DNA of 64,000 nucleotides. Origin: Candidatus Methylomirabilales bacterium. GTDB taxonomy: Bacteria > Methylomirabilota > Methylomirabilia > Methylomirabilales > CSP1-5. The translations under genes were made by a program, and so were the position numbers. The notes under the pieces were generated by a model that was not told where the DNA came from, made no database searches, and saw only the letters and a program-made list of their open reading frames with translations. This document shows, piece after piece, positions 50,888-63,714 of this stretch (the stretch's first letter is position 1; each line of letters opens with the position of its first letter). The stretch is from assembly GCA_046758505.1 (NCBI GenBank), contig JBHIAH010000002.1, positions 59,312-123,311 on the forward strand. Reading direction: 5' to 3'.

Positions 50888-52057
50888 TTACTCCACCAGT
50901 TCCAGGTACTTGAGCCCCCAGCCGGTGTTCAACAACACGACCGTGGTCTCCGGTCCCACAACCCCGTCGGCGAGCAGGTGCTTGAGGGCGACCAGGGTGG
51001 CCGCCCCTTCCGGGCAGGGGAAGATCCCCTCGGCCGTGGCCATCTCTTTCATCCCCTTCACCATCTCCCCGTCCGTCACCGCCAGTGAAGTCCCGCCCGT
51101 TTCCCTGACCGCCCGCAGGATGAGGGCGTCGGCAAATGGGTGCGGCACACGCAACCCGTGCGCCACCGTCTTTGGGTTGCGCCAGGGCTGGCAGACCTCT
51201 GCCCCCTCGCGGAACGCCTTGACAATGGGCTGGCATCCCTCGGCCTGGACCGCGATGAAGCGTGGCTGGGGGCCTTCCACCCAACCTAACTCCAGTAGCT
51301 CCCGGAAGACCTTCCACATGCCGATGATGCCCGTCCCGCCGCCGGTGGGGTAGAGAATCACATCCGGCAGCCGCCAGCCCAAGTCCATCGCGATCTCGAG
51401 ACCCATGGTTTTCTTGCCTTCGACCCGGTACGGTTCCTGAAGCGTCGAGAGGTCAAAGCAGCCCTCTTCCTGGCTCTTCGCACGCGCGAGATGCCCAGCG
51501 TCACCGATGTGCCCCTCTACGAGGGTGACACGGGCGCCCGTGACCGCAGCCTCCTTTCGATTCGCCTCAGGCGCGTCCCGAGGCATAAAAAGATGCGCCT
51601 CGAGATCCGCGCGGGCGGCGTACGCAGCCAGCGCGCCCGCCGCGTTGCCTGCCGAAGGGAGCGAGAGTCGTCTGATGCCCAACTCCTTGGCCCGGGAGAC
51701 CGCCACCGTCATGCCCCTGGCCTTAAAAGTGGCTGTCGGGTTCAGCCCCTCGTCCTTAATATAAAGGTGGTGGATACCGAGCCTCTTCCCAAGGGTGACG
51801 GCCGGCAGCAAAGGCGTCACACCCTCCCCCAGGGTGACGACATGTCCGGGGTCCTGTACCGGCAGCAGTTCAAAGAATCGCCAGAGGGTGGCGGGTCGCG
51901 TTGCAAAAACCTCCCGGGACACTCCCCGCTTGAGACCCGCCACATCATACCGCGCAAACAGCGCCTTCCCGCACTTCGCGCAGGTCCGCATCGACTGCTG
52001 CGGTTGGTACTCCCCCGCGCATGCCGTGCATTCCAGGTGCGACAGGTAGCTCTTCAT
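50888..52057 (-). CDS. thrC: threonine synthase family PLP enzyme
   Basis: N-terminal Zn-ribbon-like LECTACAGEY...CAKCGKALFARYD, PLP-lysine block NPTATFKARG, and PTGGGTGIIG. Confidence 0.75.
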   Translation of the reverse strand: MKSYLSHLECTACAGEYQPQQSMRTCAKCGKALFARYDVAGLKRGVSREVFATRPATLWRFFELLPVQDPGHVVTLGEGVTPLLPAVTLGKRLGIHHLYIKDEGLNPTATFKARGMTVAVSRAKELGIRRLSLPSAGNAAGALAAYAARADLEAHLFMPRDAPEANRKEAAVTGARVTLVEGHIGDAGHLARAKSQEEGCFDLSTLQEPYRVEGKKTMGLEIAMDLGWRLPDVILYPTGGGTGIIGMWKVFRELLELGWVEGPQPRFIAVQAEGCQPIVKAFREGAEVCQPWRNPKTVAHGLRVPHPFADALILRAVRETGGTSLAVTDGEMVKGMKEMATAEGIFPCPEGAATLVALKHLLADGVVGPETTVVLLNTGWGLKYLELVE

Positions 52058-52407
52058 GCCGCTCCCCCCTGGCTGTGTTTGTCCAGCCGTGCCTCGTGCG
52101 GCGAATGGCTAGTGATGGGCCAGCGACGGCATACGCAACGCGGGCGCCACGAGACCGGGGCGGGAACATGTCGATGTTCCTCTGAACGATCCCGCGACCG
52201 GCGGAAAGGGTCTTGTTAGCCTTCCTCCCTTCGCCTGTTACCACCGTACCCGAACTTCCCCGAAGGGTCAATGTTTGGGTGGGAGAAAGGCCTTGACAAG
52301 GCGGGAACGGGTTCAGTAAGAAGGACCCGAGCGATCGTCGTGCCCTCTCCGATCAGGATCGCTCGTTGCTTTCTCGCCCGCCAGCATCCCTGGAGGGGAG
52401 GAAAGCC

Positions 52408-52896
52408 ATGCCCAGGGCCCTGAAGATCATCCCCGAAAAGTGCACCGGATGCATGCAGTGTGAACTGGCCTGCTCCTGGGTGCAGACCGGGACCTTCCGC
52501 CCGTCGCGTTCGGTCATTCGGGTGAACGTCTTTGATGAGCAGGCGAGCTATGCCCCTTACACCTGTTTTCAGTGTGAGGAGGCCTGGTGCATGACCGCCT
52601 GCCCGGTCAACGCGATCGCGATCAATCCCGATACGGGCGCCAAGGTCGTCCTGGAGAAGGTCTGCGTGGGGTGCAGCCTGTGTGTCATCGCGTGTCCCTT
52701 CGGGACCATCTTCTGGAATCCCGACACCCACAAGGCCTTCAAGTGCAACCTGTGCGACGCCGACCCGGCCTGCGCCCGGGCCTGCCCGACCGGGGCGATC
52801 GAGTTTGCTGAGCTGCCGGCCGCCGACTGGGTGGGGCCATGGGCGGAGCGACTCAACACCGGGTACCTCGAGGCCCTCGCAGGAGGTGAGGCGTGA
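52408..52896 (+). CDS. 4x[4Fe-4S] ferredoxin-type electron-transfer subunit of aldehyde oxidoreductase (AorA-like)
   Basis: Four Cys clusters: CTGCMQCELAC, CFQCEEAWCMTACP, CVGCSLCVIACP and CNLCDADPACARACP. GGAGGGGAGGAAAGCC precedes the ATG at 52408. Stop overlaps the next GTG. Confidence 0.85.
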   Translation: MPRALKIIPEKCTGCMQCELACSWVQTGTFRPSRSVIRVNVFDEQASYAPYTCFQCEEAWCMTACPVNAIAINPDTGAKVVLEKVCVGCSLCVIACPFGTIFWNPDTHKAFKCNLCDADPACARACPTGAIEFAELPAADWVGPWAERLNTGYLEALAGGEA

Positions 52897-54737
52897 TCTA
52901 CGGCTGGAGCGGGACCATCCTCCGGGTCGATCTGACCCACGGCATCATCACGAAGGAACCCCTGAACCGGCAGTGGGCCCGCGATTACGTCGGCGGGCGG
53001 GGGCTGGGGGCCAAATACCTGTATGCGGAGATGGACCCGACCGTGGATCCCCTGGGCCCGGACAACACCCTGATCTTTGCCACCGGTCCCCTCACCGGGA
53101 CCAACGCCTCGTGCGGGGCCCGGTACATGGTGGTGACCAAGGGAGCCCTGACCAACACGATCACCACCTCCAATTCGGGTGGGCACTGGGGACCGGAGCT
53201 GAAGTTCGCCGGCTACGACATGGTCATCCTCGAGGGACGGGCCGCCCGACCCTCTTATCTGTGGATTTATGACGATCAGGTCGAGATCCGACCGGCGGAT
53301 CACCTGCAGGGGAAAACCGTCTGGGACACAGAGGATCTCATCCGGCAGGAGCTGGGGATTCCCGACGCCATCGTCGCCTGCATCGGTCCCGCGGGCGAGA
53401 AGCTGGTGAAGTTTGCCTGCATCATGAATGACAAGCACCGGGCCGCGGGCCGCTCCGGAGTCGGAGCGGTCATGGGGTCCAAGAACCTGAAGGCCATCGC
53501 CGTTCGCGGAACGAAGGGGGTTCGCATCGCCCACCCCGAGGCCTTCATGAAGGCCGTCTGGGCCGCGAAGGCCAAGCTTCGAGCCTCGCCGACGACAGGT
53601 CAGGGCCTCGCCACGTACGGGACCGCCGTCCTCGTCAACGTCATCAACGAGCACGGGGCCTTCCCTACCAACAACCATCAGCTCGCCCAACTGAAAGGGG
53701 CCGACAAGCTGAGCGGCGAGACCCTGACCGAAACCCGCCTCGTAGCCAACAAGGCGTGCTTCGCCTGTACCATCGCCTGCGGGCGGGTTTCCAAGCTTCC
53801 CGAAGACGCCGCGGGCAAACTCCCGGTGACGACCCATCCCCATAACTGGCGGATCGCAGCGGAGGGCCCGGAGTACGAAAACATCTGGGCTCTCGGGGCG
53901 GACTGCGGTGTCACCGATCTGGACGCCGTCATCAAGGCGAATTTCCTTTGCAACGAGCTGGGGATGGATCCGATTTCGATGGGGGCGACCCTGGCCGCCG
54001 CCATGGAACTGTACGAGAAGGGACATGTCAATCTGGGGCACACGGGGGTCCCGCTCACCTTTGGCAGCGGCGAGGCGTTGGTGGCCATGGTGGAGCAGAC
54101 TGCCTACCGGGAGGGTTTCGGCGGGGAGCTCGCCGAGGGATCCAAGCGGCTCGGCGCAAAGTTCGGCGCCCCCCAGTTTTTCATGGGGGTGAAGGGCCAG
54201 GAATTTCCCGCGTACGACAGTCGAGCGATCCAGGGGATGGGGCTCGGGTACGCCACGTCGAACCGGGGCGCCTGCCATTTGAAGGCGTACACCGTCGCTC
54301 CCGAGATCCTGGGCACGCCCAAAAAGATGGACCCGACGACGACCGAGGGGAAGGCGGGGATCACCAAGCTCATGCAGGACGTCACAGCGTCGGTCGACGC
54401 CACGGGATTGTGTCTGTTCCTGACCTTCGGGATCGGTCTCGAGGACATCCTGCCGCAACTCGCGGCGGGAACCGGCATCCCCTACACGATGGAGAGCATC
54501 CTCCAGGCGGGAGAGCGGATCTGGAACCTCGAGCGGATCTGGAACCAGAAGGCCGGCTTCAGCGGCACGGACGATACCCTGCCCACACGGATCCTCCAAG
54601 AGCCGATCCCCAGCGGGCCAAGCAAGGGGCGGGTAAACCGTCTGCACGAGATGCTTCCCGAGTACTACCAACTCCGGGGCTGGACCCCTGATGGCCAGCC
54701 CTCAGCTCAAAAATTGATCGAACTGGGCCTCCTGTAG
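52893..54737 (+). CDS. aor: tungsten-dependent aldehyde:ferredoxin oxidoreductase (AOR family catalytic subunit)
   Basis: GWSGTILRVDLTHGIITKEPL..., YVGGRGLGAKYLY, SNSGGHWG, and KNLKAIAVRG. Confidence 0.9.
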   Translation: MIYGWSGTILRVDLTHGIITKEPLNRQWARDYVGGRGLGAKYLYAEMDPTVDPLGPDNTLIFATGPLTGTNASCGARYMVVTKGALTNTITTSNSGGHWGPELKFAGYDMVILEGRAARPSYLWIYDDQVEIRPADHLQGKTVWDTEDLIRQELGIPDAIVACIGPAGEKLVKFACIMNDKHRAAGRSGVGAVMGSKNLKAIAVRGTKGVRIAHPEAFMKAVWAAKAKLRASPTTGQGLATYGTAVLVNVINEHGAFPTNNHQLAQLKGADKLSGETLTETRLVANKACFACTIACGRVSKLPEDAAGKLPVTTHPHNWRIAAEGPEYENIWALGADCGVTDLDAVIKANFLCNELGMDPISMGATLAAAMELYEKGHVNLGHTGVPLTFGSGEALVAMVEQTAYREGFGGELAEGSKRLGAKFGAPQFFMGVKGQEFPAYDSRAIQGMGLGYATSNRGACHLKAYTVAPEILGTPKKMDPTTTEGKAGITKLMQDVTASVDATGLCLFLTFGIGLEDILPQLAAGTGIPYTMESILQAGERIWNLERIWNQKAGFSGTDDTLPTRILQEPIPSGPSKGRVNRLHEMLPEYYQLRGWTPDGQPSAQKLIELGLL

Positions 54738-54845: not shown

Positions 54846-56234
54846 ATGCAGCACGTGATCATCGGGGGCGGGCCGACCGGGATGTACGCCCTCGATACGA
54901 TTCGAAAACTCGACCAGACGGCCGCCATCACCCTGATTTCGGATGAACCGGCGTACGCGCGCATGGCCCTCCCGTATTATCTGGCCCGAGAAATTCCCGA
55001 GGAGCAGCTCATGCTCGGGAACGACCGCTTCTTTCAGGAGATGCGGGTGGAGGCGCGCCTCGGCCGGCGGGTAACCCGCATCGATCCACAGCAAAGGGTG
55101 GTGACCCTGGACGACGCCAGTACGCTTGACTTCGACACCCTCCTGATCGCCACCGGTTCCTCCCCCACCCGGCCCGCCGTCCCGGGGGTCGATGGCCCCG
55201 GAATCAGCACCCTCTGGACCCTGCAAGAGTCCCGGGACGTCTTGACGCGCGCCCGGGAGGGGGCCAAGGTGGTCTTCATTGGGGCGGGGTTCATCGGTTT
55301 CATCGTGCTGAACGCCCTGCATAAGATCGGCTGCCAGCTCTCGGTGATCGAGATCAAAGATCAGATCCTTTCCCGCATGCTCGACCGAGGCTCGGCCGGC
55401 CTGGTAGAGCGGTGGTTGACCACCAAAGGCATCGCGGTCTATACCGGGGCCACCGTGACAGAGATTGGCGACCTTCGGGATGGTCGGAAGGCCATCCGCC
55501 TGAGCGACGGGCGCACCCTCAGCGCGGATCTAGTGATCGTGGCCACCGGGATTCGTCCCAATACCGACCTTGCCCAGGCCGCTGGGATTCAGGTGCATGA
55601 GGGAATCCTGGCCAACGACCGACTCCAGACGAACTTCCCCTTCATCTATGCGGGAGGAGATACGGCGCAGGGGCCCGACCTCTCGACCAGCGGCCAGGCC
55701 ATCCATGCCATCCAGCCCACCTGCGTGGACCACGGCCGGGTGGCAGGCGCCAATATGGCCGGCGCCACGGTCCACTACGCCGGAAGCCTCCTGGTGAACA
55801 TCCTCGATGTCGCGGGGCTGCACTGCAGCAGCTTTGGCCTCTGGCAGGATGAGGGACGCGAGGCCACGGTTCTTCAGAACCCAAACCGCTTCATCCTCCG
55901 AAAGCTCGTCTGGGAGGGGGACCGGATTGTCGGGGCACTCTTCCTCGGCCCGGCGGAGGACAGCGTGATGCTGAACGACCTGGGAATGGTGAAGGGCCTC
56001 ATCCAGACAAAGGTGAGCCTAGGACCATGGAAAGGGCATCTCATGAAATACCCCCTTGATATTCGACGCCCCTACGTCGCCAGTCGGGCGGCTGAAAGGC
56101 TTCTCCAGTCCACGACCGTGGGACGACCCTCCACGGATCTCAGGTTCCGGCACCTGGGGCACACACCCGAGACCCGACCCACGGCGGCCCATCACGTGAT
56201 GATCAGCACGCAACCAAACATGGACCAACCATAG
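54846..56234 (+). CDS. FAD/NAD(P)-binding pyridine nucleotide-disulfide oxidoreductase (AorC-like subunit)
   Basis: MQHVIIGGGPTGMYAL (first dinucleotide fold), VVFIGAGFIGFIVLNAL (second fold), and YAGGDTA. GGAG lies 5 nt before the ATG. Confidence 0.85.
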   Translation: MQHVIIGGGPTGMYALDTIRKLDQTAAITLISDEPAYARMALPYYLAREIPEEQLMLGNDRFFQEMRVEARLGRRVTRIDPQQRVVTLDDASTLDFDTLLIATGSSPTRPAVPGVDGPGISTLWTLQESRDVLTRAREGAKVVFIGAGFIGFIVLNALHKIGCQLSVIEIKDQILSRMLDRGSAGLVERWLTTKGIAVYTGATVTEIGDLRDGRKAIRLSDGRTLSADLVIVATGIRPNTDLAQAAGIQVHEGILANDRLQTNFPFIYAGGDTAQGPDLSTSGQAIHAIQPTCVDHGRVAGANMAGATVHYAGSLLVNILDVAGLHCSSFGLWQDEGREATVLQNPNRFILRKLVWEGDRIVGALFLGPAEDSVMLNDLGMVKGLIQTKVSLGPWKGHLMKYPLDIRRPYVASRAAERLLQSTTVGRPSTDLRFRHLGHTPETRPTAAHHVMISTQPNMDQP

Positions 56235-56268
56235 TCCGAAGTCCAATGTCCGACGTCCGAAGTCAACA
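56234..56268. repeat. heptamer array starting in the aorC stop codon
   Basis: GTCCGAA GTCCAAT GTCCGAC GTCCGAA GTCAACA. Confidence 0.8.
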
Positions 56269-56474
56269 AAGGCGAGGAAGGGGTTCCTTCCGAGGCAGAC
56301 ACCATCTGGCTTGCGTCGGCCGGGGTCCCGCAGCCGGAGCGAAGCGAAGGCTGGGGTGGCCCACACGAACGAATCAAAACGCCTCACCGCGCGTAAGGTT
56401 GCACCTGTGCATTAAGTCCATGGAGAATATGGTGCTGCCGAGGAAGGTCCTTCCAAGCCTTTAGTGAGACAAGC

Positions 56475-57050
56475 ATGAAGATAGAGATCAAGCTGTTCGC
56501 CAATCTGAAAAAGCTCCTCCCCCCCGACGCCGACGGCAACATGGCCACCCTGGAGGTCGAGGAGAGCCTGACGGTGGGAGCACTCCTCGAGCACCTCCAA
56601 GTCCCCACGGAGCTGGCGCAACTCGTCCTGGTCAACGGTGTCAATATCGAGGGGGAGTATGGGCGGGTCCTTCGAGAGGGCGACACGCTAAGCATCTTCC
56701 CCCCGGTCGCCGGCGGGATCGCCTATCCCTACTTCCCGGATCTCGACAACGCGCCGGAGAAGGAGATTACGCGCGGGGTGAAGATCCGGGTAGCCTGGGG
56801 GGACAAGCTCATGCTCTCCCGCGTCATCCTGGAGCCGGGCGCTACCGTCCCAATGCACAGCCATCCCCATGAGCAAGCGGGGATCGTTTTGGAAGGCGAG
56901 TTCGACTTTACGATCGGCACTGAAACCAGGCGAGTGAAGGCAGGAGATGTCTACTTTATTCCGGGGGGTGTGACGCACGGCTGTCTCGCCTGTACCGGAC
57001 GGGCCATCGCCCTCGACATCTTCACTCCCCCACGGGAGGAGTATAAATAG
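56475..57050 (+). CDS. MoaD/ThiS-like ubiquitin-fold domain fused to a cupin domain
   Basis: aa 1-81: MKIEIKLFANL...VLVNGVNIEGEYGRVLREGDTLSIFPPVAGG, a canonical MoaD ending. It continues without a stop into the cupin motifs PMHSHPHEQAGIVLEGEF and GDVYFIPGGVTHG. Confidence 0.8.
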   Translation: MKIEIKLFANLKKLLPPDADGNMATLEVEESLTVGALLEHLQVPTELAQLVLVNGVNIEGEYGRVLREGDTLSIFPPVAGGIAYPYFPDLDNAPEKEITRGVKIRVAWGDKLMLSRVILEPGATVPMHSHPHEQAGIVLEGEFDFTIGTETRRVKAGDVYFIPGGVTHGCLACTGRAIALDIFTPPREEYK

Positions 57051-57937: not shown

Positions 57938-58122
57938 CAGCTGCCAGTTGTCAGCCGTCCGCTGTCAGCAGAGGAGATGCTGGGAAGCGAGGATGCTAGA
58001 AAGCTTGGATGCTGGGAGGGAGTCTGTTGTCAGGCTCCCCCGTCCCCACACGCCCGGCCTACTAGCCTTCTAGCGTTCCAGCCTGCTAGCCGCCTATTGC
58101 TGACTGCTGACAGCCGACAGCT
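57938..58122. repeat. nested inverted repeat arrays between convergent dedA and the NxxGxxAF gene
   Basis: Outer arms: CAGCTGC CAGTTGT CAGCCGT CCGCTGT CAGCAG (57938-57971) versus TTGCTGACTGCTGACAGCCGACAGCT (58097-58122). CTGCTGACAGC is shared as a perfect complement, and 17 of 19 nt match when extended. Inner arms: GCTGGGAA GCGAGGAT GCTAGAAA GCTTGGAT GCTGGGAG (57979-58018) versus CTACTAGC CTTCTAGC GTTCCAGC CTGCTAGC (58059-58090). Confidence 0.85.
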
Positions 58123-59320
58123 ATCTCGCGGTGGGGACGGCAAGGAAGAGACCGGAGGCAGCCCGGCCACCCTCGACAGTACCCGCAAACGCCACGGTGC
58201 CGTCGGGGCCGACTTCCGGATCGATCACATTGGTAAAACGTCCCCCCAGCGGAGTCGGGTCCCCGACCCGGACGACCGGCATCAAGGTTGCTTTCGTGGC
58301 GAGGAAGATTCCGGCACTCGCCTCTCCCCGCGAAATTGTCGCTTCAAAGGCGACGGTACCGCTTTGATTGAACGAGTACGTCAGGCCGATAAAAGAGAGC
58401 TGCCCCCCGCCCGGCACGGGATCTCCCCGTGCCGCTATCTTTTTGATGGACCCGTCCGAGGCCAGGAAGAGGCCCGCGGGGGCTCGAGCCCCCTCGAGCG
58501 AGGCCCAAAAGACCACCTCCCCATGATCGTTCAGCATCGGGAGGGCCAGGTCCTTGAAGGTCCCCCCGAGGGGGGACGGATCTCCCACGGCAACCACTGT
58601 CTGCACACCTGACTTCGGACCCACAAAGATTCCCGAAGGGGCCCTGCCGCGATGCACTCTGCCTTCAAAGACCATCTCCCCCCGGTTGTTCATCGACAGG
58701 TCGACAAACTCACCGAATCGACCGCCGACCGACGTGGGATCACCAGCCCCCACCACCTTTTCAAGGACGCCCGCCGAGGCGAAGAAGAGAGCCCTGGGCA
58801 CCTTGCCGCGCTCCACGCGACCCACAAAGGCAATGGCATCGGCGCAATTGAGCACCACCTGGCCGAGCTCCCGGAGGACACCGCCACCCGGGGCAGCGTC
58901 ATTCACCGCCACCACCTTCTTCAGACTGTTTCCCCCCCTGAAGTAAATCGCCTGGGGAACCCCGCCCGCCGCCGAGCCGACGAAGGCCACATTCCCCCGC
59001 CGATTCAGGGCCGTGGAACTCAGATCGATAAACGTCCCCCCCAGGGGAGAGGAATCGCCTATGGCGACGACCCGAGTGAGGGAAACGCCTCGCGCCACGT
59101 AGACCCCATGAAACGGTTCATCCTTCTTTTTCACCAAGGCATCAAACAGAATCGCGCCGGTGTTCGCCACGGGGTCAAAATGCGTAAAGGTCCCTCCCTG
59201 AGGCGCCCCGTCCCCCGCGGCCACCACCTTCAGGATGGTAAACGCGGCGGGCTCGGCCGAGCCCACCCCGAACAGGAATAGTAGTAAGGCAGCGACAAAG
59301 GCTCTCCGTAGCACCCTCAC
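58121..59320 (-). CDS. secreted tandem-repeat protein (NxxGxxAF-type repeats, probable beta-propeller)
   Basis: Signal peptide MRVLRRAFVAALLLFLFGVGSA. About eight repeats of roughly 48 aa with the pattern VVA-GD--P-GG-F------N--G-VAF------G---G-F. Confidence 0.75.
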   Translation of the reverse strand: MRVLRRAFVAALLLFLFGVGSAEPAAFTILKVVAAGDGAPQGGTFTHFDPVANTGAILFDALVKKKDEPFHGVYVARGVSLTRVVAIGDSSPLGGTFIDLSSTALNRRGNVAFVGSAAGGVPQAIYFRGGNSLKKVVAVNDAAPGGGVLRELGQVVLNCADAIAFVGRVERGKVPRALFFASAGVLEKVVGAGDPTSVGGRFGEFVDLSMNNRGEMVFEGRVHRGRAPSGIFVGPKSGVQTVVAVGDPSPLGGTFKDLALPMLNDHGEVVFWASLEGARAPAGLFLASDGSIKKIAARGDPVPGGGQLSFIGLTYSFNQSGTVAFEATISRGEASAGIFLATKATLMPVVRVGDPTPLGGRFTNVIDPEVGPDGTVAFAGTVEGGRAASGLFLAVPTAR

Positions 59321-59377: not shown

Positions 59378-59636
59378 GGTTCATGGTTCATAGTTTATGG
59401 TTCATGACCAACAGTTCACGGTGGATGATTCATGGTTCATGGTGGTGCTCGGAGTATAAGTCTATGAACTCTGAACCTTCAATCCTGAACTCCCTACCAC
59501 CATTCACTAGTCACCAGCCACCACTCACCCGCCACGAGTCACCTGCCGACAGACGACTGGTGACCGCAGACCGACGACTGACTTTGGACGTTGGACTTTG
59601 GACCCTCACGGTGAACCGTGAACTATGAACCGTGAA
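59378..59636. repeat. 259-nt mosaic of 37 phase-locked heptanucleotides
   Basis: Stepping by 7 from 59378: GGTTCAT GGTTCAT AGTTTAT GGTTCAT GACCAAC AGTTCAC GGTGGAT GATTCAT GGTTCAT GGTGGTG ... CTATGAA CTCTGAA CCTTCAA TCCTGAA ... TCACCAG CCACCAC TCACCCG CCACGAG TCACCTG CCGACAG ACGACTG GTGACCG CAGACCG ACGACTG ACTTTGG ACGTTGG ACTTTGG ACCCTCA CGGTGAA CCGTGAA CTATGAA CCGTGAA. No register slip. Confidence 0.9.
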
Positions 59637-60657
59637 CAGGCCTTATGACGGCCGGCTTTCGATGCCGGGCCATTCGGATTGCCACCCGGAGCGCCTCCAG
59701 GAGGCTCTGCGGGCTGGCTGTCCCCTTTCCGGCAATGTCGAAGGCGGTCCCGTGATCCACCGAAGTCCGGATTATCGGCAGCCCCACAGTCACATTGACC
59801 GCCCGACCGAAACTCCGGAGTTTGACAGCGACATGCCCCTGATCGTGATACATCGCGACGACGAAATCGAACCCGCCTCGGGCCGCCCGGTAAAAGAGGG
59901 TATCGGCAGGAAAGGGCCCCGTGGCATCGATCCCCTCTCCTCGGGCCGCCGCCACCGCCGGAGCGATCTCTTCCCGCTCTTCGCCGCCAAAGAGCCCCTC
60001 TTCCCCTGCGTGGGGATTCAGGCCGGCCACGGCGATCCGTGGCCTGGGAAGATCCCATGCCGCTCCGACCTCGTGCGCCAAGCGGACGACCTGCAACACG
60101 CGCTCTTTCTTGACCCGATCACACGCCTCGCGAAGGGGGACATGCGTGGAGACATGGAGCACCCGGAGCCTTCCTGCGACCAACATGAGCGCGTAGTTTC
60201 GGACGCCAGTCCGTTCGGCAAAGATCTCGGTATGCCCCCCGAACGGATAGCCGGCGAGATGCATCGCCTCTTTGTTGAGCGGGGCCGTGACCACCGCATC
60301 GAGCTCACCGGCCCGGGCGAGCTCGATCGCCTTCCAGACGTACTCAACGGCCGCCCGCCCGGCTTGGGCCGAGAGAACGCCCGGGGGACACTGCTCCACT
60401 TCGACATTCTTGAGGTCGAGGACTGCCACCTCTCCCGCGTGGCCGGTTACCTCCCCAACCGAACCGATCCGCCGAACGCCGACAGAGACCCCCACATAGC
60501 CCTGCGCCCGGTCCAAGACGGCGCCGTCCCCCACGACGATCGGGATCGCCTGGCGGGAGATCGCCCCGTGAGCGAGGGCCTTGATGATGATCTCCGGCCC
60601 GATCCCAGCCGGATCGCCCATGGTAATGCCGATGCGTAGCTTCCTTTTCTCCGCCAC
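59623..60657 (-). CDS. pdxA: PdxA family 4-hydroxythreonine-4-phosphate dehydrogenase
   Basis: LRIGITMGDPAGIGPEIIIKA, and SVDHGTAFDIAGKG. GTG at 60657 has GGAGG 5 nt upstream. The listed ATG at 60717 lies inside the heptamer repeat. Confidence 0.85.
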   Translation of the reverse strand: MAEKRKLRIGITMGDPAGIGPEIIIKALAHGAISRQAIPIVVGDGAVLDRAQGYVGVSVGVRRIGSVGEVTGHAGEVAVLDLKNVEVEQCPPGVLSAQAGRAAVEYVWKAIELARAGELDAVVTAPLNKEAMHLAGYPFGGHTEIFAERTGVRNYALMLVAGRLRVLHVSTHVPLREACDRVKKERVLQVVRLAHEVGAAWDLPRPRIAVAGLNPHAGEEGLFGGEEREEIAPAVAAARGEGIDATGPFPADTLFYRAARGGFDFVVAMYHDQGHVAVKLRSFGRAVNVTVGLPIIRTSVDHGTAFDIAGKGTASPQSLLEALRVAIRMARHRKPAVIRPVHGS

Positions 60658-60710
60658 TCGCACCTCCCCGCCGCCGGATTTTAGCACACTCTCTCGTCGG
60701 TGCCAAAGTC

Positions 60711-60836
60711 GGTTCACGGTTCACAGTTCACGGTTGAGGGTCCAACGCCCGAAACTACGGCTTTTGGCCCGGTTCATGGTTCATAGTTCATGGTTCAGTG
60801 GAAACAGAAATTCGCAATCCCCAATTCGAAATTCGA
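60711..60836. repeat. heptamer arrays in the pdxA / sucC-like divergent spacer
   Basis: GGTTCAC GGTTCAC AGTTCAC GGTTGAG GGTCCAA (60711-60745). GGTTCAT GGTTCAT AGTTCAT GGTTCAG (60771-60798, register shifted by 4). AATTCGC AATCCCC AATTCGA AATTCGA (60809-60836). Confidence 0.85.
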
Positions 60837-62246: not shown

Positions 62247-63185
62247 ATGGCGATTCTGGTCGACGAAAAAACACGGATCCTGATTCAGGGGATTACCGGC
62301 CGAGAAGGGGCGGCCATGGCGAAGGACTCCGTGGAGTATGGGGCACAGATCGTGGCGGGCGTCACGCCGGGAAAGGGGGGCCGCCAGATTCACGGGGTGT
62401 CGGTCTATGATTGCGTCAGCCACGCCGTGAAGGAACACGGCATGGACGCGGCGGTGATCGCGGTCCCCCCGCCCTTTGCCAGGGACGCCGCCCTCGAAGC
62501 CCTCTCGTGCGGCATCGGCCTCGTGGTGATCCTCACCGAGCGCATCCCCCGCAAAGATACGGTAGAGATCGTCAGCTTCGCCGCGCAGCAGGGGGCCCAC
62601 GTCATCGGTCCGAACTCGTTAGGAATAATCTCCCCTGGGAAGACGAAAGTCGGTATGATCGGGGGGCCCGCGCAGGACGTGCGGAAGGCCTATCAGCCCG
62701 GCGCGGTCGGCATCATCTCGCGCAGCGGCGGGATGACCACGGAGATCGCCACGCTCCTTACCCTGAACGGCATCGGACAGTCTACCTGTGTGAGCATCGG
62801 GGGGGATCCGATCGTCGGGACCCATTACCTCGACTTGATCCCCCTCTTCGCCCGGGACCCGGCAACGGCAGTAGTGGTGCTCTTCTGCGAGCCTGGTGGC
62901 GGGGCCGAAGAGGCCCTGGCCGACCGGGTCGCCCGAGAGGGGCTCCCCGTGCCGATCGTGGCATTCGTGGCTGGACGGTTTGCCGACCGGATGCCGGGAA
63001 CGCGTTTCGGGCATGCCGCCGTCATGGTGGAGGGGAAGCGCGGGAGTACCCAGGGAAAGATCGAGGCGTTCCGCCGCGCCGGCCTTCCTGTGGCCGAAGA
63101 GCTCACCGGCATAGTCCCTTTGGTCCGGGAGGCCCTCGGACGGGAGAAAAACAGTTCAGGGTTCAGAGTTCATGGTTCAGGGTAA
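62247..63185 (+). CDS. succinyl-CoA synthetase alpha-type (CoA-binding, phosphohistidine) subunit
   Basis: MAILVDEKTRILIQGITGREG, GVTPGKGG, GPNSLGIISPG, SRSGGMTTE and QSTCVSIGGDPI, with the phosphohistidine loop GTRFGHAAVM. The last 11 codons (SSGFRVHGSG) are encoded by the heptamer repeat. Confidence 0.85.
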   Translation: MAILVDEKTRILIQGITGREGAAMAKDSVEYGAQIVAGVTPGKGGRQIHGVSVYDCVSHAVKEHGMDAAVIAVPPPFARDAALEALSCGIGLVVILTERIPRKDTVEIVSFAAQQGAHVIGPNSLGIISPGKTKVGMIGGPAQDVRKAYQPGAVGIISRSGGMTTEIATLLTLNGIGQSTCVSIGGDPIVGTHYLDLIPLFARDPATAVVVLFCEPGGGAEEALADRVAREGLPVPIVAFVAGRFADRMPGTRFGHAAVMVEGKRGSTQGKIEAFRRAGLPVAEELTGIVPLVREALGREKNSSGFRVHGSG

Positions 63186-63187
63186 GG
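63153..63187. repeat. heptamer array overlapping the sucD-like 3' end
   Basis: AGTTCAG GGTTCAG AGTTCAT GGTTCAG GGTAAGG. The TAA stop (63183-63185) lies in the last unit. Confidence 0.85.
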
Positions 63188-63204
63188 GGCACAGAGAAAA
63201 ACAA

Positions 63205-63474
63205 ATGACGGCCGGGGCGGAAATACTGAAAGGCATCTTTATCAGGGTGGCGGTGAACGACCCGGCGTGTCTCGGGATAGAGCAGTGCGGGGACTGTGTG
63301 GGCCTCTGCCCGGTCGATATTTTTTATCCCGTCGGGGACCGGGTCAGCGTGCAGGAGGAAGACGAGTGCACGCTGTGTACCCTGTGCCTCACATGCCCCA
63401 CCGATGCCATCCGGATTGTGAAGCTGTATGAGGATGGGGAGTCCGATGTCCAAAGTCCAACGTCCAAAGTCTAG
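63205..63474 (+). CDS. 2x[4Fe-4S]-type ferredoxin-like protein
   Basis: CLGIEQCGDCVGLCP and CTLCTLCLTCP. The start is uncertain: ATG at 63205, or ATG at 63172 overlapping the upstream gene. The C-terminal DVQSPTSKV is encoded by GTCCAAA-type heptamers. Confidence 0.65.
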   Translation: MTAGAEILKGIFIRVAVNDPACLGIEQCGDCVGLCPVDIFYPVGDRVSVQEEDECTLCTLCLTCPTDAIRIVKLYEDGESDVQSPTSKV

Positions 63475-63714
63475 GACCCTTGGGCGGGGGGCTGGCGGGG
63501 GGCTGGCGGTTGGCGGCTGGTGGCACGGAGTTCAGGGTTGAGGGTTCAGAGTTCATGAGGAGTGGATGGTGGTTGGTAAGGGTCGTGGGTGTTGGGTGTT
63601 AGGTTTGAGTCATGCGCGATCATTACTGAGTGCTGAGGGGCGATTTGGCATTGCTGACCGCTCACTGCTGACGGCCGACCGCTGATTCCATCGGTCGCCG
63701 GTCGTCGGTCACCG
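63441..63714. repeat. 274-nt mosaic of heptamer arrays plus an 11-mer duplication
   Basis: GTCCGAT GTCCAAA GTCCAAC GTCCAAA GTCTAGG. GGGGGGCTGGC x2 (63486-63507). AGTTCAG GGTTGAG GGTTCAG AGTTCAT. GTGGATG GTGGTTG GTAAGGG TCGTGGG TGTTGGG TGTTAGG. TACTGAG TGCTGAG GGGCGAT TTGGCAT TGCTGAC CGCTCAC TGCTGAC GGCCGAC CGCTGAT TCCATCG GTCGCCG GTCGTCG GTCACCG. Confidence 0.88.

Follow-up and report, generated by a model that had tools for sequence, protein, structure and literature searches.

A MoaD-like domain fused in frame to a cupin beside tungsten aldehyde oxidoreductase genes of Methylomirabilales: a maintained fusion of two operon genes and a candidate processed precursor

How could a sulfur carrier of the MoaD/ThiS type, whose chemistry depends on a free C-terminal Gly-Gly, work if a second domain follows that dipeptide in the same reading frame? 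This question is raised by a 191-residue protein encoded in a 64,000-nucleotide stretch of DNA from a Candidatus Methylomirabilales bacterium (contig JBHIAH010000002.1, positions 59,312 to 123,311; hereafter the window), which comes from a metagenome-assembled genome (MAG). A first reading of the letters alone, hereafter the original prediction, had described residues 1-81 as a MoaD/ThiS domain running up to the Gly-Gly, and the remainder as an in-frame cupin with a metal-binding motif. Profile searches bear out both statements, with two Pfam models scoring above their cutoffs: ThiS (PF02597) matches residues 6-81 (E 1.2e-8; 35.8 bits, cutoff 22.5), its last position falling exactly on Gly81, and Cupin_2 (PF07883) matches residues 116-182 (E 8.8e-18; 64.2 bits, cutoff 27.2), with the motif PMHSHPHEQ...GGVTHG present. 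The NCBIfam models moaD_arch, SAMP1 and moaD all score under their cutoffs on this open reading frame (ORF), and neither Pfam nor NCBIfam finds MoaE in it, the partner domain being Cupin_2. The codons GGC GGG of Gly80-Gly81 are followed by no stop and no frameshift, and the chain continues across the junction as SIFPPVAGGIAYPYFPDLDNAPEK. The free C-terminal Gly-Gly of ThiS/MoaD carriers is thus absent from the translated product, and the clash with sulfur-carrier chemistry noted originally is real; since 110 residues follow Gly81, a free terminus would need proteolysis. We find that the fusion corresponds to the last two genes of an NC10-type operon, aorA-aorB-(moaD2)-aorC-moaD-cupin, and is selectively maintained. 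As for the fate of the chain, our analysis favors, at a probability of roughly 0.55, a precursor that would be cut after Gly81.

The fusion recurs in related genomes. A homologue search covering 5.8 billion proteins recovered fused ThiS+Cupin_2 proteins (P0002-P0006) with 73-82% identity to the window protein, and the same architecture is present in at least five other NC10/Methylomirabilales sequences; the fused loci are L001, L014, L095 and L096, and frameshifted copies of a homologue were also recovered (P0013, P0017). NCBI lists an identical protein, from a Candidatus Methylomirabilales MAG, under the name "cupin domain-containing protein". In a set of 1.84 billion representative proteins the architecture is limited to a few Methylomirabilota-type sequences, and no description of a MoaD-cupin fusion was found in the searchable literature. 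The linkers after Gly-Gly in the fused homologues (IAYP, IDYP, T, ADNP and WGDI) vary in both length and sequence, and the frame is kept in every one of them. For the three fused genes compared at the DNA level (window, L001 and L014), the ratio of nonsynonymous to synonymous substitution (dN/dS) is 0.11-0.22 in the MoaD half and 0.12-0.21 in the cupin half, at a synonymous divergence (dS) of 0.58-1.1; both halves are therefore under purifying selection. The fusion has persisted through substantial divergence.

Both split and fused orthologues were found, and the halves are usually separate adjacent genes. At locus L094, aorB and aorC are followed by a moaD gene of 79 codons that stops directly after Gly-Gly, a 51-bp spacer, a cupin gene for 108 residues and a convergent pdxA; L176 displays the full series aorA-aorB-moaD2-aorC-moaD-cupin, succeeded by radical SAM and SDR genes with a restriction-modification (RM) system inserted between; L006 has 228 bp between moaD and cupin; and about 25 metagenome loci carry further split pairs. 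Of the 31 metagenome loci with a cupin sharing at least 60% identity with that of the window, 27 have a MoaD-family gene immediately upstream, as does 1 of 38 at 50-60% identity, in a sample ranked by similarity, which favors loci matching both halves. One subclade of these cupins is thus characterized by conservation of the moaD-cupin pair. The original suggestion of a maturation factor with an extra cupin activity has to be recast in this light: the cupin is normally a gene of its own 3' of moaD, and the fusion is secondary.

Comparison of the junctions indicates at least three independent fusion events, brought about by different changes. The window type reads GG-IAYP-YFPDL, with no methionine, the moaD stop and the spacer being absent; from position 56715 onward the sequence is homologous to the cupin gene that stands alone at L002. 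At L093 a 42-bp in-frame deletion has taken out the TAG and most of the spacer, such that the Shine-Dalgarno sequence of the cupin gene is now translated as LEEI ahead of the cupin's own ATG, and at L100 the TAG has become GAG, resulting in read-through of a 99-nt spacer. L093 and L100 both retain the cupin Shine-Dalgarno sequence and ATG. In the window type an internal cupin start was considered and rejected: no in-frame ATG lies near the junction, and initiation at the only start-type codon noted there in frame, the GTG of Val101, would cut into the first strand; the window-type cupin is therefore wholly dependent on the fusion. MoaD-cupin fusions are made by trivial stop loss between neighboring genes.

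Each part of the arrangement can also be lost. The cupin stands alone by pdxA without aor genes at L002, L007 and L010; aorABC-moaD has lost the cupin at L005, L015 and L016, where relic tails such as GGIDYLLNPDKAPST remain; and the fusion occurs without adjacent aorABC at L014/L095 and L093. In the 40 aorBC-moaD loci from outside Methylomirabilota, no cupin was found within the up to 10 kb of flank on each side. The notion that a mobile aorABC-moaD cassette had merely landed upstream of a resident cupin beside pdxA is weakened by the intact operons of L094 and L176, which belong to divergent lineages, the 27 of 31 pairs and the three fusions; it survives in part, in that moaD and cupin each also occur singly.

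The MoaD half belongs to a family with the ending S[IV]FPPVAGG. In the family profile (A5), positions 1-81 align with 2m19 and positions 3-81 with E. coli MoaD (1fm0_D); the profile also runs end to end with 1vjk, so placing the Gly-Gly on the last two residues of solved MoaD chains. With one genome per species scanned, the motif occurs in 439 genomes, and of the best 80 loci, which were examined, 44 have aorB/aorC-like genes directly upstream, most of them with aorA as well; these are mostly from Binatia, along with Methylomirabilota, Planctomycetota and others. By sequence the MoaD half falls in this class linked to aldehyde oxidoreductase (AOR), that is, the AorD type. Members of the class seldom end at the dipeptide: 12 of the 44 do so, 20 carry one to three further residues and 12 carry four or more, whereas the 36 MoaDs without an AOR link divide into 33, 0 and 3. 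In all, 1-40 non-conserved residues follow the Gly-Gly in 32/44 AOR-linked against 3/36 other MoaDs. Some tails are relics of a cupin N-terminus, for example GGIDHLQNLDKAPKK, and the MoaDs of the group-iii metagenome loci end in GGK, GGL, GGC or GGRG. A conserved Gly-Gly with a variable, disposable tail behind it is the signature of processed ubiquitin-like precursors, and the frequency of such tails in the AOR-linked class points to C-terminal processing as a routine step. As a separate observation, a 79-residue MoaD-like subfamily that ends exactly in SIFPPVAGG (L029-L033, L043, L056 and L064-L092, mostly Thermodesulfobacteriota) has no aorABC nearby and, as judged by eye, adjoins TolQ/TolR/TolA/TolB-like genes, with a SelD-like gene directly upstream in six loci.

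An AlphaFold2 model built on a 76-sequence alignment contains two confident domains, with a mean predicted local distance difference test score (pLDDT) of 93.3 and values above 90 in the MoaD domain; residues 80-83 (GG-IA) are the only segment below 50. The predicted template modeling score (pTM) is 0.59, and the relative orientation of the domains is therefore undefined. The Gly-Gly was originally described as buried, which is true in that it is internal to the chain; in the model it lies instead in an exposed, disordered linker. Gly80-Gly81 would thus be masked in the chain and exposed in a flexible connector, as expected of a processing site.

In the precursor reading that we favor, Gly80-Gly81 would lie within an exposed, flexible connector between the two folded domains of the nascent product, and a ubiquitin-like-protein-specific peptidase encoded elsewhere, of the JAMM/MPN+ type or equivalent, would cut after Gly81. 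The freed AorD-type carrier would be adenylated and thiocarboxylated by a MoeB-type E1 and would give dithiolene sulfur to the tungstopterin of the adjacent AorB, while the cupin, once set free, would be a separate metalloenzyme of about 12.5 kDa (110 residues). The main effect of the fusion would then be 1:1 co-expression, and it might be tolerated because disposable C-terminal tails are routine among MoaDs of the AOR-linked class. The precedent of MoaX from Mycobacterium tuberculosis, invoked in the original prediction, holds: its activity requires cleavage after Gly82 (PMC4326299). Further, the JAMM protease DR0402 cleaves DR2607, a MoaD-MoaE fusion of D. radiodurans, and JAMMs from archaea process linear fusions irrespective of what follows the Gly-Gly. 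In Aromatoleum, inclusion of aorDE on the expression plasmid together with extra tungstate gives higher AOR activity and tungsten content.

Several points weigh against this reading. Pfam and motif searches of the 64-kb window found no JAMM, MoeB or MoaE genes, none of the three was seen among the neighbor clusters of the 80 genome loci, and the JAMM motif H[ST]Hx7SxxD has zero matches in 1.46 Mb of related loci. The dependence of the window-type cupin on the fusion could point to a functional two-domain protein, and the frequency of tails could mean that AOR-linked MoaDs as a class make no use of the C-terminus. The invariance of the Gly-Gly among the 80 genome loci is partly built in, since they were retrieved by the S[IV]FPPVAGG pattern; the dipeptide is likewise nearly universal in a pattern-free, word-indexed protein search. 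Two of the fusions, L093 and L100, are single contigs, and the former also has a frameshift in a G-run.

An unlikely alternative is that the two-domain protein stays uncleaved and its MoaD domain acts no longer as a thiocarboxylate carrier but as a β-grasp adaptor, docking the cupin or itself onto AorB or the cofactor-insertion machinery; in that case no member of the AorD class would need its C-terminus to be free. It accommodates the failure of 73% (32/44) of AOR-linked MoaDs to end at Gly-Gly, compared with 8% (3/36) in the sister subfamily without an AOR link, the lack of activating or processing enzymes in any neighborhood examined, and a cupin with no start codon of its own; for AorD and AorE, moreover, "putative maturation factors" is the only designation known. 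Against this, members with a fusion, with a tail or with neither all retain FPPVAGG while the tails are unconserved, which is the pattern of a processed precursor; the model, with its pTM of 0.59 and disordered linker, has no confident interdomain interface; and cupin and MoaD each persist alone in relatives.

It appears rather improbable that the carrier has its cognate enzyme in the cupin, as MoaD has in MoaE and ThiS in ThiG, although this would be compatible with cleavage: the freed Gly-Gly tail would enter the metal site of the cupin, and the acceptor of the sulfur would be a small molecule or the tungsten cofactor. Such a relationship would fit the tightness of the gene pair in the cupin subclade (27/31) across differing flanking genes, the three independent fusions, the frequent radical SAM and SDR genes after the cupin, and the fact that known N-terminal MoaD/ThiS fusions join the carrier to its acceptor enzyme (Iyer et al. 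2006). Against it stand the 40 of 44 aorBC-moaD genome loci, all outside Methylomirabilota, that lack a cupin within up to 10 kb, and four of the five close cupin homologues looked up (L002, L007, L010 and L178), which have no MoaD neighbor, the fifth (P0043, at L176) having one. Moreover, the upstream MoaD in some loci is the other paralogue, MoaD2, which resembles operon decay rather than specific pairing; the closest characterized cupins, KdgF and BacB (an isomerase), are not sulfur-transfer enzymes; and the model again lacks a confident interface.

More speculative, and in our estimation quite improbable, is the proposal that the cupin is a dedicated enzymatic partner of AorD-type MoaD-like proteins, either a self-cleaving metallohydrolase or a sulfur acceptor. 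In the former version a non-JAMM, cupin-fold enzyme may trim whatever follows Gly-Gly, the fused form cutting its own chain; in the latter the cupin may take the sulfur of the MoaD thiocarboxylate for a step specific to the tungsten cofactor, such as sulfuration. The tight pairing, the three fusions and the frequent tails after Gly-Gly are compatible with this proposal, as is the existence of cupin-fold amidohydrolases.

A neutral read-through accident, with a functionless fusion and a MoaD half that could be spared or is degenerating, is very improbable. Such fusions arise easily by simple stop loss, relatives have lost either half and junk tails are common, but the MoaD half is as constrained as the cupin half at a dS of up to 1.1, and the frame is preserved through linker indels in at least five lineages. 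Finally, an artefact of assembly or sequencing, with a missed stop or frameshift after the GGG at 56717 that hides two genes, can be dismissed: the window is from a MAG and frameshifted homologue variants exist (P0013, P0017 and the G-run of L093), but the same in-frame junction recurs in the independent assemblies L001 (GCA_046758825), L014 (NC10 SPGG6), L095 (GCA_044231125), P0004 and P0005.

The coordinates of the fusion gene, its parts and the surrounding genes are collected in Table 1.

Table 1. Features of the fusion gene and its neighborhood, in window coordinates
Feature	Coordinates	Strand	Basis or remark
Fusion ORF: MoaD-like domain, 4-residue linker and cupin	56475..57050	+	ATG start, 191 aa
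AorD-type ThiS/MoaD β-grasp domain	56475..56717	+	residues 1-81, ending SIFPPVAGG; Pfam ThiS
Gly80-Gly81 codons, predicted processing and activation site	56712..56717	+	direct reading of the sequence
Linker Ile82-Ala-Tyr-Pro85	56718..56729	+	disordered in model; variable in homologues
Complete monocupin, Sthe2323/KdgF-like family	56730..57047	+	residues 86-191; Cupin_2
First cupin metal motif, H128-S-H130-P-H132-E133-Q134	56856..56876	+	near-invariance in alignment A2
His168, second metal-motif histidine (GGVTHG)	56976..56978	+	near-invariance in alignment A2
aorA-like 4Fe-4S ferredoxin subunit, first operon gene	52366..52896	+	Fer4 family matches; PadI resemblance
aorB-like tungsten aldehyde oxidoreductase, catalytic subunit	52893..54737	+	AFOR_N E 2.7e-83, AFOR_C E 4.7e-143
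aorC-like FAD/NAD pyridine nucleotide-disulfide oxidoreductase subunit	54846..56234	+	Pyr_redox_2 E 2.1e-54; PadH-like (NCBIfam)
DUF7453 gene, synteny anchor downstream of cupin	58121..59320	-	Pfam DUF7453
pdxA, synteny anchor convergent with cupin across NC10 relatives	59623..60717	-	Pfam PdxA

As originally noted, the fusion gene lies directly 3' of aorABC-like genes, with the Fer4, AFOR and Pyr_redox_2 genes upstream on the same strand. This order, with a MoaD gene after aorC, is also found at L001, L005, L013 and L016 and at 40 loci outside NC10; the aorA-like protein is 88-92% identical in the first three of these, and the AorB-like protein is about 60% identical to the AorB of L176 and L094. 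The spacer between aorC and the fusion gene (56235-56474) measures 240 bp in the window and about 55-130 bp in relatives, and no obvious Shine-Dalgarno sequence precedes the ATG of the fusion. A regulatory RNA or terminator in this spacer was considered and rejected: it gives no Rfam match at E <= 0.1 and 0 promoter-like sites, and its 3 terminator-like sites, all on the minus strand, are no more than the mean of 3.4 in shuffled sequence. No second MoaD (AorE/MoaD2) is encoded in the window. Downstream, DUF7453 occupies the same position at L007, L014, L015, L016 and L095, and pdxA adjoins the cupin or fusion gene at L002, L006, L007, L010, L014, L093 and L094.

Between the genes in the area of pdxA and the citryl-CoA-synthetase-like genes, the intergenic DNA is filled with tandem heptamers, GTTCA[TCG]G and its complement (59379-59445, 59612-59644, 60705-60803, 63154-63199 and 63530-63561), accompanied by a perfect 24-nt inverted pair, GACTTTGGACGTTGGACTTTGGAC (59580-59603 / 63448-63471), and a 70-nt inverted repeat (59464-59533 / 63487-63556); together these may constitute a family of intergenic repeat elements. 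On the other side of the operon, divergent from aorA, the minus-strand gene at 50888-52057 encodes a pyridoxal phosphate (PLP)-dependent enzyme, with PALP as its only Pfam match, that reads as threonine-synthase-like and has a zinc-ribbon-like N-terminal CxxC...CxxC; it is missing from this position at L001, L005 and L010, and is thus not a conserved part of the cluster.

Related loci display a range of rearrangements. A second, partial cupin copy (residues 64-109, 83% identical) lies at 10945-11082 of L001, 3 kb downstream of the intact fusion and beyond a 551-residue ORF without a Pfam match, resembling a rearrangement scar. In the lineage of P0003, aorABC is replaced by a lipoprotein-like CarboxypepD_reg gene 12 bp before the fusion (L014 2113-2946; L095 3565-4383), whose CxxHxxM reads as a cupredoxin copper site; a fragment of this gene precedes moaD at L006 (699-980). 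The insertion at L176 (10696-13234) comprises an N6_N4_Mtase and XhoI RM pair with a Fic gene, between the cupin and radical SAM genes. An NAD-type aldehyde dehydrogenase (ALDH; PF00171) takes the AorB position at L115 (2956-4461) and L128 (211-1716); it adjoins AorA-like, MoaD2, AorC-like, MoaD and cupin genes in the latter and is followed by MoaD2, MoaD and cupin only in the former, which suggests that ALDH replaced the tungsten enzyme inside these operons. In many group-iii loci the cupin is followed by an SDR and a radical SAM protein of about 330 residues (for example L101 843-1838, L115 5801-6796 and L176 13411-14385), with a cysteine-rich N-terminus, CRVCPWDCEINR, and weak, sub-threshold matches to NrdG and PflA activase models; a literature search for a Cmo-type radical SAM link returned nothing relevant.

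Turning to the cupin half, H128, H130, H132, E133, Q134 and H168 are nearly invariant in an alignment of 57 sequences (A2), and the predicted metal motif HxH...E/Q...H corresponds to H128, H130, E133/Q134 and H168. The best solved relative is Sthe2323 (4e2g), both by sequence (E 1.8e-23) and by fold, where a Foldseek comparison gives a template modeling (TM) score of 0.86-0.89 and a root-mean-square deviation of 1.1-1.2 Å at 44% identity; next come KdgF (TM 0.84-0.90, 26-33% identity), BacB and 9bwf. Stand-alone homologues of 105-123 residues begin at the equivalent of Tyr86-Phe87 (M-x-F-x-D-L). KdgF reportedly linearizes unsaturated uronates; genes for pectin or alginate were looked for in vain in the window. 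The cupin of L115, a related locus, has a weak NCBIfam match to ureidoglycine aminohydrolase. The genes found beside these cupins (AOR or ALDH, SDR and radical SAM) are compatible with a role in aldehyde metabolism or a cofactor-related one.

Bacterial AORs attract biotechnological interest as catalysts of acid reduction, and MoaDs of the AorD/AorE type raise both their activity and their tungsten content. The present locus shows that AOR-linked MoaDs commonly bear C-terminal extensions, with the Gly-Gly conserved throughout, and that in Methylomirabilota they have repeatedly been fused to a conserved downstream cupin. How AorD-type proteins act thereby becomes directly testable, as a question of whether the Gly-Gly is exposed by proteolysis and by which protease, and a small cupin can be named as a candidate accessory of this type of AOR operon. 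If cleavage occurs, the protein would add to the bacterial cases of ubiquitin-like precursor processing one in which the partner is not MoaE.

In comparison with known systems, AOR-linked MoaDs and N-terminal MoaD-MoaE fusions have been described before; what is new is a MoaD joined to a cupin. Eukaryotic ubiquitin-ribosomal protein fusions and the precursors of tailed ubiquitin-like proteins likewise have a conserved Gly-Gly and then a variable tail or an unrelated protein, as would be expected of parts that a peptidase specific for ubiquitin-like proteins takes off; the window family differs from these in consisting of prokaryotic sulfur carriers, with no sign of conjugation. The window cupin shares its fold and metal motif with Sthe2323 and KdgF, but whereas those stand alone, its subclade is marked by an upstream MoaD-family gene. 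Iyer, Burroughs and Aravind (2006) described an AOR-linked MoaD gene cluster as a probable mobile tungsten-cofactor module, and in both that cluster and aorABCDE of Aromatoleum aromaticum a MoaD-like gene directly follows genes for the 4Fe-4S protein, the tungsten AOR and the FAD oxidoreductase, as in the window. The MoaD half corresponds to aorD/aorE, whose products have a proposed role in tungsten-cofactor synthesis; unlike them, it is fused at its C-terminus to a cupin, with no AorE/MoaD2 alongside. The Azoarcus fusion (Iyer et al. 2006) differs in having MoaD at the C-terminal end of the AOR, which leaves the Gly-Gly free. MoaX and DR2607, by contrast, resemble the window protein in having an N-terminal MoaD whose Gly-Gly is followed in frame by a folded partner; cleavage of the window protein is so far a prediction, and its partner is a cupin in place of MoaE.

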